Source of the DNA: Candidatus Woesebacteria bacterium
Lineage (GTDB): Bacteria > Patescibacteriota > Microgenomatia > UBA8517
Reading direction: 5' to 3'
DNA length: 64,000 nt
Assembly (NCBI GenBank): GCA_003484955.1
Contig: DMZH01000002.1
Location: 211,496 to 275,495 of the forward strand
Shown here: positions 12,934 to 14,301 of the stretch, in pieces
How the letters are laid out: each line of letters opens with the position of its first letter
How positions within the stretch are numbered: position 1 is the first letter of the stretch
Notes under the pieces: generated by a model
What the model saw: the letters and a program-made list of their open reading frames with translations, nothing else
Database searches by the model: none
What the model was told of the DNA's origin: nothing
Translations under genes and position numbers: made by a program

Positions 12934-13779
12934 TTATTGAAGTTCACACTGTTTTTGGTAATAATCGTCACTTACTACAATTTCTTTTATCATTTGTTTC
13001 TGATGGTCATCAATAATTTTACTGCACGGATTGTTTGACGATTCGTCTTTGCAAAGTTCTACAAGACCTACAAATTTTTGAGATACAATATAATTGTTGA
13101 TTGATTTAATTATCTGCAATTGGGGATTGAGATCTTCATCATATTTTATACGAAGGTCAATTGATTTATTTGTCTCATCTCCCTGGAAACGAGAAAATTC
13201 CCACTCACCAAAAAAGGCTTCAACCTCTTTATCAATACACGATAGATTATCTTTCCCATTCAATAAATCGAGATACTGCCTAACGTGTGTTATCTCGTGC
13301 ACTAAAAGAAGTGCATTAACTATGTCATCTGAATAGCTATAATCTTTATCAACATAAATGGGGAAATAGTTATCTTTAATTTCTTCACCATTAAATTCAA
13401 AATATCCCTCAACCTTCTGTGATGCCCTCACATCACTCTCAACTATTTTTATGCAGTTAGTTAATTGCGAGGGAAAAGTGTTTAAACCTGGACTCTTCTC
13501 CCACACTTCATACCTTTCAGCTATTAAACTTAAGGCTCTATCATATTGTGGTTTGTTTTCAAGCCTAGTAGTTCTTGTGCAAGATGCTGTTTTAGATTTT
13601 TCAGTATTTGTATTTTGAATCTCACTACTTTTTTTGGAAAAGGATCCGATTTTATCCCCAATAAAATTTTTAAGGTTAAAAAAACGAAATGCTCCTATGG
13701 CTACAATCAAAATAATTCCAAAAAATAGTGTAATTCTTAAAACCTTATTTTTTTGATGCTTGCCAAAGATCTTGTCCAT
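12934..13779 (-). CDS. Membrane-anchored HExxH metallopeptidase-like protein (DUF4157-like)
   Basis: N-terminal TM helix (ITLFFGIILIVAIGAF). HExxH in the context ALLLVHEITHVRQY with a downstream Glu (EVEAFFGEWE). Confidence 0.5.
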   Translation of the reverse strand: MDKIFGKHQKNKVLRITLFFGIILIVAIGAFRFFNLKNFIGDKIGSFSKKSSEIQNTNTEKSKTASCTRTTRLENKPQYDRALSLIAERYEVWEKSPGLNTFPSQLTNCIKIVESDVRASQKVEGYFEFNGEEIKDNYFPIYVDKDYSYSDDIVNALLLVHEITHVRQYLDLLNGKDNLSCIDKEVEAFFGEWEFSRFQGDETNKSIDLRIKYDEDLNPQLQIIKSINNYIVSQKFVGLVELCKDESSNNPCSKIIDDHQKQMIKEIVVSDDYYQKQCELQ

Positions 13780-13794
13780 AAGCCAAAGTGTTTA

Positions 13795-14301
13795 TTAGGT
13801 AAAAATACTGGTGGATATTTCTTTTATTATTTTCTCACCTGTTAAAAGTTTGTTTCTAAGCTCTATTTGTCTGTCGTTACTCATTATTTCATCCATACCG
13901 ACATAACTATCCAACCTTGCGTTGTTATATTCTTCCAGATTGGTGAGAAATTCCCTCCAGATTTTTAGGACATTACGATATTTTTTGTTAGCATCTTGAT
14001 ATTTTCCTATTATCTTCAAAACTTCATTTCTATTTTCTTGAAGTCCTTTAATTTCTTTTTCCATAACCTCAAGACTTTCCTTATAAAGTTCGTCATCCTT
14101 TTTCTTCTCCAGATGTTTTAAATCCGCGTCTCTTGAGTCTGTAATCATTTTTAGATTTTTCTTATAAAGCTTATTTGTCTGATAGGTAAGTATAGAAATG
14201 GGTGTAAATTCAAATAACCAAAAATAAACCGCCATTACTATAAGTGCGAAAAAGAATGAGGATAAGAAATCTAGCATCAAAAGTATTATATACCAAAACA
14301 A
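13795..14301 (-). CDS. Membrane protein with coiled-coil tail
   Basis: Two N-terminal hydrophobic helices, then a charged heptad-rich segment. Confidence 0.45.
   Translation of the reverse strand: MFWYIILLMLDFLSSFFFALIVMAVYFWLFEFTPISILTYQTNKLYKKNLKMITDSRDADLKHLEKKKDDELYKESLEVMEKEIKGLQENRNEVLKIIGKYQDANKKYRNVLKIWREFLTNLEEYNNARLDSYVGMDEIMSNDRQIELRNKLLTGEKIIKEISTSIFT

Follow-up and report, generated by a model that had tools for sequence, protein, structure and literature searches.

A predicted membrane-tethered zincin metallopeptidase family of Microgenomates and other Candidate Phyla Radiation bacteria, encoded on a small integrated element of Candidatus Woesebacteria

The P1 gene, its family and its predicted active site

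The stretch of DNA analyzed here, referred to as the window, comprises 64,000 nucleotides of a Candidatus Woesebacteria genome (assembly GCA_003484955.1, contig DMZH01000002.1, positions 211,496 to 275,495 of the forward strand). An earlier note, made from the sequence of the window, had drawn attention to two adjacent open reading frames (ORFs) for membrane proteins on a mobile element, here called P1 (12934..13779) and P2 (13795..14301), and both are indeed present, on the minus strand. P1 starts with ATG, ends with the stop codon at 12934-12936 and encodes a membrane-tethered, zincin-like protein of 281 amino acids. The exact P1 and P2 sequences have been deposited as hypothetical proteins of 'uncultured bacterium ACD_13C' and of Candidatus Woesebacteria GW2011_GWA1_40_43, so that the window stems from a groundwater Microgenomates genome recovered in aquifer metagenomes. 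The N-terminal anchor described for P1 is confirmed by hydropathy, which places a hydrophobic signal-anchor helix at residues ~16-33 (13681..13734, minus strand), preceded by the basic residues K3, K7, K10, K12 and R15. It is followed by a low-complexity stalk rich in Ser, Thr, Asn and Lys (residues 43-61; 13597..13653, minus strand), which is unconserved and gap-rich in the family alignment, and by a conserved ectodomain of ~220 residues (62-281; 12937..13596, minus strand). This ectodomain comprises a CxRxxRxxN..DRALS motif, a three-strand sheet, the active-site helix, a helix bearing a conserved Glu, and a C-terminal helical subdomain. The predicted zinc-binding and catalytic motif HEITH (H161-E162-x-x-H165) is encoded at 13285..13299 on the minus strand, where the letters, read directly, are the reverse complement of CAC GAG ATA ACA CAC. 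Residues 158-169 in the translation of ORF 12934..13779 read LLVHEITHVRQY, with Q168 standing after the motif. As had also been stated, a Glu lies downstream: E185 (13225..13227, minus strand), the predicted third zinc ligand, is located 19 residues past H165. A conserved 'antisense ORF' within P1 (13370-13615, plus strand) was dismissed as a mere shadow of the conserved P1 gene.

P1 belongs to a sizeable family. In a collection of 5.8 billion proteins 130 homologs were found at E<=0.01, none of them with a Pfam domain, and those with a named source derive from Microgenomates, Roizmanbacteria and similar groups. A family profile built from 35 members retrieved 358 clusters at E<=1e-3 from 1.84 billion cluster representatives; because 325 of these fall below 1e-10, the family is discrete and has a sharp edge. 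Its members are either single-domain proteins or carry only N-terminal membrane or ectodomain extensions. Scans of P1 against Pfam, NCBIfam, PHROGs and PADLOC gave no significant match, and a literature search on element-borne metalloproteases of the Candidate Phyla Radiation (CPR) and on the family DUF6782 found no earlier description. The family, which had no name before, occurs for the most part in Microgenomates and other members of the CPR.

Within an alignment of 257 sequences of the family, the residues of the presumed active site are almost invariant. H161 and H165 are retained in 256 of 256 homologs, E162 in 255 of 256 and E185 in 254 of 255; Y274 is conserved without exception (250/250) and Q168 in 229 of the 257 sequences. 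As the HExxH context and its His and Glu ligands are near-invariant in the homologs, whose loss there the earlier note had set as the test of its proposal, the peptidase-like reading of P1 stands. Six cysteines are conserved in P1, namely C67, C109, C181, C243, C252 (by alignment equivalence) and C278; five of them (C67, C109, C181, C243 and C278) are near-invariant in the family, and a Cys following C243 is present in most members.

Three independent observations place the P1 domain outside the cytoplasm. Firstly, Lys and Arg residues are more numerous before than after the hydrophobic helix in 144 of the 182 family members with a single anchor (mean 4.0 versus 2.3). Secondly, a longer variant of the family consists of a signal peptide, an extracellular domain, a transmembrane (TM) helix, a K-rich loop, a second TM helix and the zincin domain; another variant combines a cytoplasmic zinc ribbon with a TM helix, an ectodomain and the zincin domain. 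Thirdly, 235 of 241 members have an even number of ectodomain cysteines, which is six for 204 members, and C243 and the next Cys were lost jointly in 15 of 19 cases, as would be the case for disulfide partners. Judged from these sequence features, the anchor is predicted to adopt an N-in/C-out orientation with an extracytoplasmic domain, whether or not a signal peptidase cleaves the anchor.

The AlphaFold2 model of P1, calculated from a 35-sequence alignment, is confident, with a mean predicted local distance difference test (pLDDT) score of 87.6 and a predicted template modeling score (pTM) of 0.76. Disorder is confined to residues 1-7 and to the stalk at 43-61, where pLDDT drops below 50. 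A backing helix (77-94) is followed by strands at 110-115 and 138-144, the helix 152-173 with the HEITH motif, the helix 181-197 with E185, and four more helices. HExxH, conserved throughout the family, thus resides on a predicted alpha-helix, and the overall modeled fold resembles solved zincins: in fold comparisons P1 obtained values of 7.8 with the HExxH domain of ChlH, 7.1 with lugdulysin (M30), 7.0 with peptidyl-Lys endopeptidase (M35), 6.9 with ERAP1 (M1), 5.5 with thermolysin and ~6 with proabylysin and selecase (2.6-2.8 A across ~90 residues). A Foldseek search of the model against the Protein Data Bank (PDB) yielded no match below E 0.3, and the viral models of BFVD gave weak zincin-like matches only, of the IrrE or SprT type. 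All sub-threshold Pfam matches of the family are to metallopeptidase families and fall on the active-site helix (DUF6782, PhageMetallopep, Peptidase_M91 and Aspzincin_M35). The commonest of them, DUF6782 (PF20573), is a putative, uncharacterized metallopeptidase family that matched 13 of the 35 family members at E<=10 (best E 0.0047) with best scores of ~16-18 bits, below its gathering cut-off of 27 bits; P1 of the window was itself unmatched at E<=10. About 40 of the 241 profile positions align, and these cover the active-site helix only (~86-129).

In thermolysin (M4) the zinc ligands have the spacing HExxH-x19-E, which equals that in P1. Because of this spacing and of the modeled position of E185 on the helix after the active-site helix, where 254 of 255 homologs have a Glu, we read P1 as a gluzincin. 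No sequence homology was detected to the known gluzincins, that is, thermolysin, the M1 aminopeptidases and the minigluzincins proabylysin, projannalysin and selecase, from which P1 differs by its own CxRxxRxxN..DRALS motif, its six cysteines, a C-terminal helical subdomain ending in YxxQC, the single N-terminal membrane anchor and the CPR-restricted distribution. The secreted M30 peptidases hyicolysin and lugdulysin and the M35 enzymes peptidyl-Lys endopeptidase and deuterolysin share 13-16% identity with P1 and lack a membrane anchor; moreover, M35 uses as third ligand an Asp in GTxDxxYG, unlike P1 with its invariant Glu in the helix that follows.

P1 most likely represents a new zincin family and is a zinc endopeptidase that is tethered to the membrane, stabilized by disulfides and extracytoplasmic, its metal binding, catalysis and disulfides being predictions. 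The N-in signal anchor and the flexible, Ser/Thr-rich stalk would hold the disulfide-stabilized catalytic domain of ~220 residues outside the cell. There, H161, H165 and E185 would bind Zn2+ and E162 would be the general base for the activation of water. Substrate would be bound by the edge strand EGYF (residues 124-127), and the invariant Y274 may stabilize the transition state.

The integrated element and the genomic context of P1 homologs

The placement of P1 on a mobile element, also part of the earlier description, is supported, as the gene lies in a tRNA-flanked, recombinase-bearing segment of low GC content (0.33-0.37 across ~8.5-16.3 kb versus ~0.40-0.42 in the flanks). The element extends approximately from 8542 to 16150 and measures about 7.7 kb. 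Its left edge is formed by tRNA-His (8467..8541, plus strand), the probable integration site. A gene for a large serine recombinase reaches with its 3' end 20 nt into the 3' end of this tRNA gene (8522..10093, minus strand; Pfam matches to Resolvase, E 1.4e-30, Recombinase, 6.7e-10, and Zn_ribbon_recom, 2e-7). No second tRNA-His 3' end exists in the window, and the element thus apparently supplies the functional 3' end of the tRNA. The next gene encodes a 446-aa protein (10208..11548, minus strand) without a Pfam match, which contains a Walker-A-like motif (APSSTGKS). It weakly resembles (E 5e-6) the C-terminal portion of a Toprim and DnaG-zinc-ribbon protein of 833 aa, which is encoded near P1 homologs in another genome (locus L018, 17804-20305, plus strand; see below), and is probably the replication or helicase-type protein of the element. 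A DUF5659 protein (11738..11992, minus strand; Pfam E 1.1e-8) and a 250-aa ORF (12135-12887, minus strand) precede P1. The listed GTG start of the latter overlaps a terminator-like hairpin of P1, wherefore its true start is probably an internal ATG (M19). Beyond P2 follow ORFs of 321 aa (14306-15271, plus strand), 122 aa (15246-15614, minus strand; with a CxxC...CxxC zinc-ribbon pattern) and 195 aa (15559-16146, minus strand). These three and the 250-aa ORF had no match in Pfam, NCBIfam, PHROGs or PADLOC, and no capsid, terminase or conjugation genes were recognized in the element, which might be a plasmid-like integrated element, a satellite or of some other type. Directly outside of it, a DUF6448 protein with an N-terminal hydrophobic, signal-like segment is encoded (16333-16944, plus strand; Pfam E 2e-44). 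The window as a whole is unusually rich in tRNA genes (a feature noted at 19090-38416), with 15 in 64 kb, seven of them in a row between 29468 and 30334. Compact CPR genomes typically show such richness, which offers many places where elements could integrate.

A comparable context recurs around P1 homologs in other genomes, of which ~11 independent loci were examined (L001/2/15, L003/4, L005/6/17, L007/14, L008, L009, L013, L016, L018, L019, L030 and L031/32). A serine recombinase directly adjoins the P1 homolog in Gottesmanbacteria (L005/L017) and in L016. In L003 the homolog immediately follows tRNA-Ile, and a tyrosine integrase is encoded 2 kb away; in L007, L013 and L019 a tRNA-Ser or tRNA-Gln is found less than 1 kb away. 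The two tRNA-Ser genes that flank the homolog in L007 were considered as an attachment-site (att) duplication and rejected, being different tRNAs. In Roizmanbacteria (L001) the homolog is surrounded by HTH_17, PadR and DUF5659 genes. DUF5659 thereby occurs near P1 in two Microgenomates lineages (11738-11992, minus strand, in the window and 16350-16589, minus strand, in L001), and DUF5659 proteins could perhaps mark CPR mobile elements of this class. Altogether, a recombinase or a tRNA gene is adjacent to P1 in at least 7 of the ~11 independent loci, and no neighboring gene was found to be conserved across them. Locus L018 is part of a complete genome outside the CPR, that of candidate division TM6 (Dependentiae) GW2011_GWF2_28_16 (CP011212.1), which stems from the same aquifer study. 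It contains two P1-family paralogs (10010-10816, plus strand, and 13700-14833, minus strand) beside a Toprim/DnaG-type primase-like gene, one of them with an N-terminal zinc ribbon, which suggests that P1 element cargo has been transferred between CPR bacteria and TM6.

One module was observed in two copies, in L016 (8557-11732), assigned to an 'uncultured Gammaproteobacteria' bin, and on the Gottesmanbacteria chromosome of L005 (6585-9759). Both consist of the recombinase, a divergent P1 and genes of 172 and 152 aa, and encode near-identical proteins; such likeness points either to an error in binning or to a transfer in the very recent past.

Overall, P1 has the traits of an independent accessory gene that is frequently carried by small integrative elements with serine or tyrosine recombinases near tRNA genes. 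It might instead be an ordinary chromosomal surface protease of Microgenomates, with a housekeeping or accessory function, whose position in the island is incidental. Such a view would accommodate the loci L008, L009, L030 and L031, where the neighbors are metabolic or unrelated genes and no recombinase lies within the fetched DNA, as well as the outcome of tblastn searches of P1 against phage and plasmid collections, in which no homolog was found. These collections, however, contain essentially no CPR elements, so that their silence is uninformative. The patchy distribution of P1, the lack of a conserved neighborhood, its proximity to recombinases or tRNAs in the majority of loci, the paralogs next to a primase-like gene in the TM6 genome and its location inside the low-GC segment of the window all argue for a mobile gene, and we consider an incidental island position improbable.

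That P1 is both a gluzincin-type zincin (clan MA) and cargo of a mobile element is the interpretation we favor, with moderate confidence. Several findings weigh against it. Sequence searches of the PDB, for which either P1 or the family profile served as query, like those of Pfam, NCBIfam and PHROGs, provided no link to a characterized peptidase. No att duplicate was detected in the window, neither among direct repeats over 8.3-21.5 kb nor as a copy of the tRNA-His 3' end with <=3 mismatches; the right border of the island, set by composition only, is consequently approximate (16150-16330). A mobile location is not demonstrable for every P1 copy, as L008, L009 and L030 have no recombinase in view. 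Finally, any specific substrate or biological role is a guess, in which we place far less confidence than in the assignment itself.

Non-proteolytic, two-gene and toxin-associated alternatives

The highest value in the fold comparison was obtained with the HExxH domain of ChlH, and P1 could accordingly be a non-proteolytic HExxH enzyme or binding module, either an Fe(II)/2-oxoglutarate hydroxylase like ChlH and SjiH or an inert zincin-like scaffold. The lead of ChlH over true peptidases is small, though (7.8 vs 7.1, 7.0 and 6.9), and Fe(II)/2-oxoglutarate chemistry is implausible in a domain that is predicted to be extracytoplasmic and disulfide-bonded. In addition, no partner genes for ribosomally synthesized and post-translationally modified peptides (RiPPs) or radical S-adenosylmethionine (SAM) enzymes are conserved beside P1, and the near-absolute conservation of the complete HExxH+E set speaks against an inert scaffold. 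We therefore attach little weight to a function other than proteolysis.

A comparably small chance is given to the possibility that P1 and P2 function together as a module of two genes, such as a protease with a membrane-bound regulator, substrate or immunity protein. P2 (minus strand) was listed as an ORF of 168 aa that reaches TTG at 14301. Because all its homologs begin with M-x-D-F, as seen in their alignment, the start is likely the ATG at 14277 (M9 of the listed ORF), which gives a gene at 13795..14277 and a protein of ~160 aa; the database version starts at M23. Like P1, P2 had no significant match in Pfam, NCBIfam, PHROGs or PADLOC. It had been described as a bitopic protein with a long coiled coil. 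The AlphaFold2 model (pLDDT 75.9) agrees with an N-terminal hydrophobic TM helix and an all-helical remainder, but the latter is divided by breaks into four helices (35-66, 71-104, 109-129 and 142-167) and looks more like a helical bundle or hairpins than like one long coiled coil. The topology of both proteins was predicted from the distribution of Lys and Arg. In contrast to the C-out arrangement of P1, the short acidic N-terminus of P2 and the K-rich sequence after its TM helix predict an N-out/C-in orientation, and the domain of P2 is probably cytoplasmic, across the membrane from that of P1.

The two genes share a strand and are separated by 15 nt. P2 is preceded by a promoter-like site (14325..14352, minus strand), and a terminator-like hairpin with a T-run is found 42 nt past the P1 stop codon (12874..12892, minus strand); both were found by consensus scans only, and the promoter-like matches are not enriched over shuffled sequences. 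Because of the short gap and these two sites, P2 and P1 are probably co-transcribed as a bicistronic unit in this element. Unrelated small proteins with a TM segment and helices are also found near some other P1 copies (152 aa in L005 and L016; 94 and 194 aa in L018). The pairing proposed in the earlier note, however, holds for the adjacency in this element and no further. Co-occurrence was examined in both directions by phmmer and family hidden Markov models on six-frame ORFs: none of the ~11 independent P1 loci, those of the closest P1 relatives (74% and 55% identity) among them, contains a P2 homolog, and none of the five independent P2 loci (L010, L011, L012, L033 and L034-36) contains a P1 homolog. 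Several genes beside P2 homologs, namely one of 285 aa upstream in L012 and others of 263-305 aa downstream in L033-L036, were checked as P1 relatives, which they are not. The P2 family is also far smaller, with 7 matches by single sequence and 10 members by profile against the 358 clusters of P1, and the genes that come after P2 at its own loci are others. In one P2 subclade an overlapping 79-aa gene for a single-TM protein is always located 3' of the P2 homolog (L033 1221-1460, L034 1197-1436, L035 949-1188 and L036 920-1159); it is absent from the element in the window. Together with the prediction that the membrane separates the two soluble domains, these results identify P2 as an unrelated orphan small membrane protein, and P1 and P2 form no evolutionary module.

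It is highly unlikely that P1 is a member of DUF4157 (PF13699, now eCIS_core; PVC-metallopeptidase), the toxin-associated module of contractile-injection or polymorphic-toxin systems to which the earlier note had compared it. DUF4157 is a module of unknown function associated with toxins of contractile injection systems (CIS; PMC8213781, PMC8894135, PMC13266070), and its proteins are cytoplasmic cargo with disordered N-termini, encoded in loci of extracellular CIS (eCIS) and type VI secretion systems (T6SS; PMC8213781, PMC8894135). What the two have in common is the extended motif of the active-site helix, LLxHExxHVxQ, with a Gln three residues past the second His. Most members of the P1 family have Q168, and the corresponding H77, E78, H81 and Q84 are invariant in eight annotated DUF4157 proteins (from Caballeronia, Streptomyces, Nostoc, Deinococcus, Acaryochloris, Paracoccus and Treponema) that were fished as positive controls from plasmids with a bait sequence. 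Aligned with these proteins by hhalign, the P1 family profile reached a probability of 78%, which covers 11 columns only (LLvHEITHVQQ / LLAHELaHvvQ), and a Paracoccaceae FG-GAP protein with a sub-threshold PF13699 match is 38% identical to P1 across residues 132-179. Family membership, by contrast, did not withstand the profile search, in which PF13699 (gathering score 22 bits) failed to match P1 even at E<=1, whereas the control proteins scored 77-116 bits. Nor was PF13699 among the 25 most often matched families (of 56) listed for 35 P1 homologs at E<=10.

The alignment of P1 with DUF4157 stops at the active-site helix. DUF4157 is a module of 79 residues that ends at HExxHxxQQ without a conserved Glu helix and is fused or adjacent to eCIS/T6SS toxins, whereas P1 continues for ~115 more conserved residues and is an anchored, extracytoplasmic ectodomain of 220 residues lacking a CIS context. 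The profile search with the P1 family revealed a sharp edge and no tail into the very large DUF4157 family. The contractile-injection or polymorphic-toxin setting that had been suggested was not recovered either, as neither the island in the window nor any P1 homolog locus encodes sheath, tube, baseplate, T6SS or toxin families. A toxin-immunity reading was likewise discarded, since no toxin or delivery domain is present and P1 and P2 do not co-occur.

Possible role and significance of the P1 family

As an extracytoplasmic peptidase, P1 might cleave or trim proteins or peptides at the cell surface, be it those of its own envelope, pili, receptors or proteins of neighboring cells. Such an activity could conceivably benefit the element or its host, for example by excluding competing phages or elements or by processing pili and adhesins. 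More specifically, the family might represent a CPR-specific, horizontally mobile surface protease by which small integrative elements remodel their ultra-small, episymbiotic hosts, an idea that we regard as a long shot. According to this scenario, P1 would cleave pilus or receptor proteins to the disadvantage of competing phages and elements, or proteins of the partner cell of the CPR bacterium, and the family would be exchanged among CPR lineages and even with Dependentiae (TM6).

What is new here is a zincin metallopeptidase family in a poorly known lineage and on a small integrative element; the zincin kind as such is already known, and no concept is overturned. Two misleading leads can be dropped, as the P1 family is neither a DUF4157/contractile-injection toxin module nor one half of a conserved gene pair. 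It is a candidate for a new Pfam and MEROPS family and for a marker of CPR integrative elements. The genomes of CPR bacteria (Patescibacteria) are full of unannotated membrane and surface proteins that are thought to mediate the episymbiotic lifestyle. For one such family of 358 clusters without a Pfam model, the label 'hypothetical protein' can now be replaced by a testable prediction, that of an outward-facing, disulfide-bonded zinc peptidase with named residues. If the remodeling of host surfaces proved true, it would constitute a new type of element-encoded 'surface editing' in bacteria that lack a genetic system.

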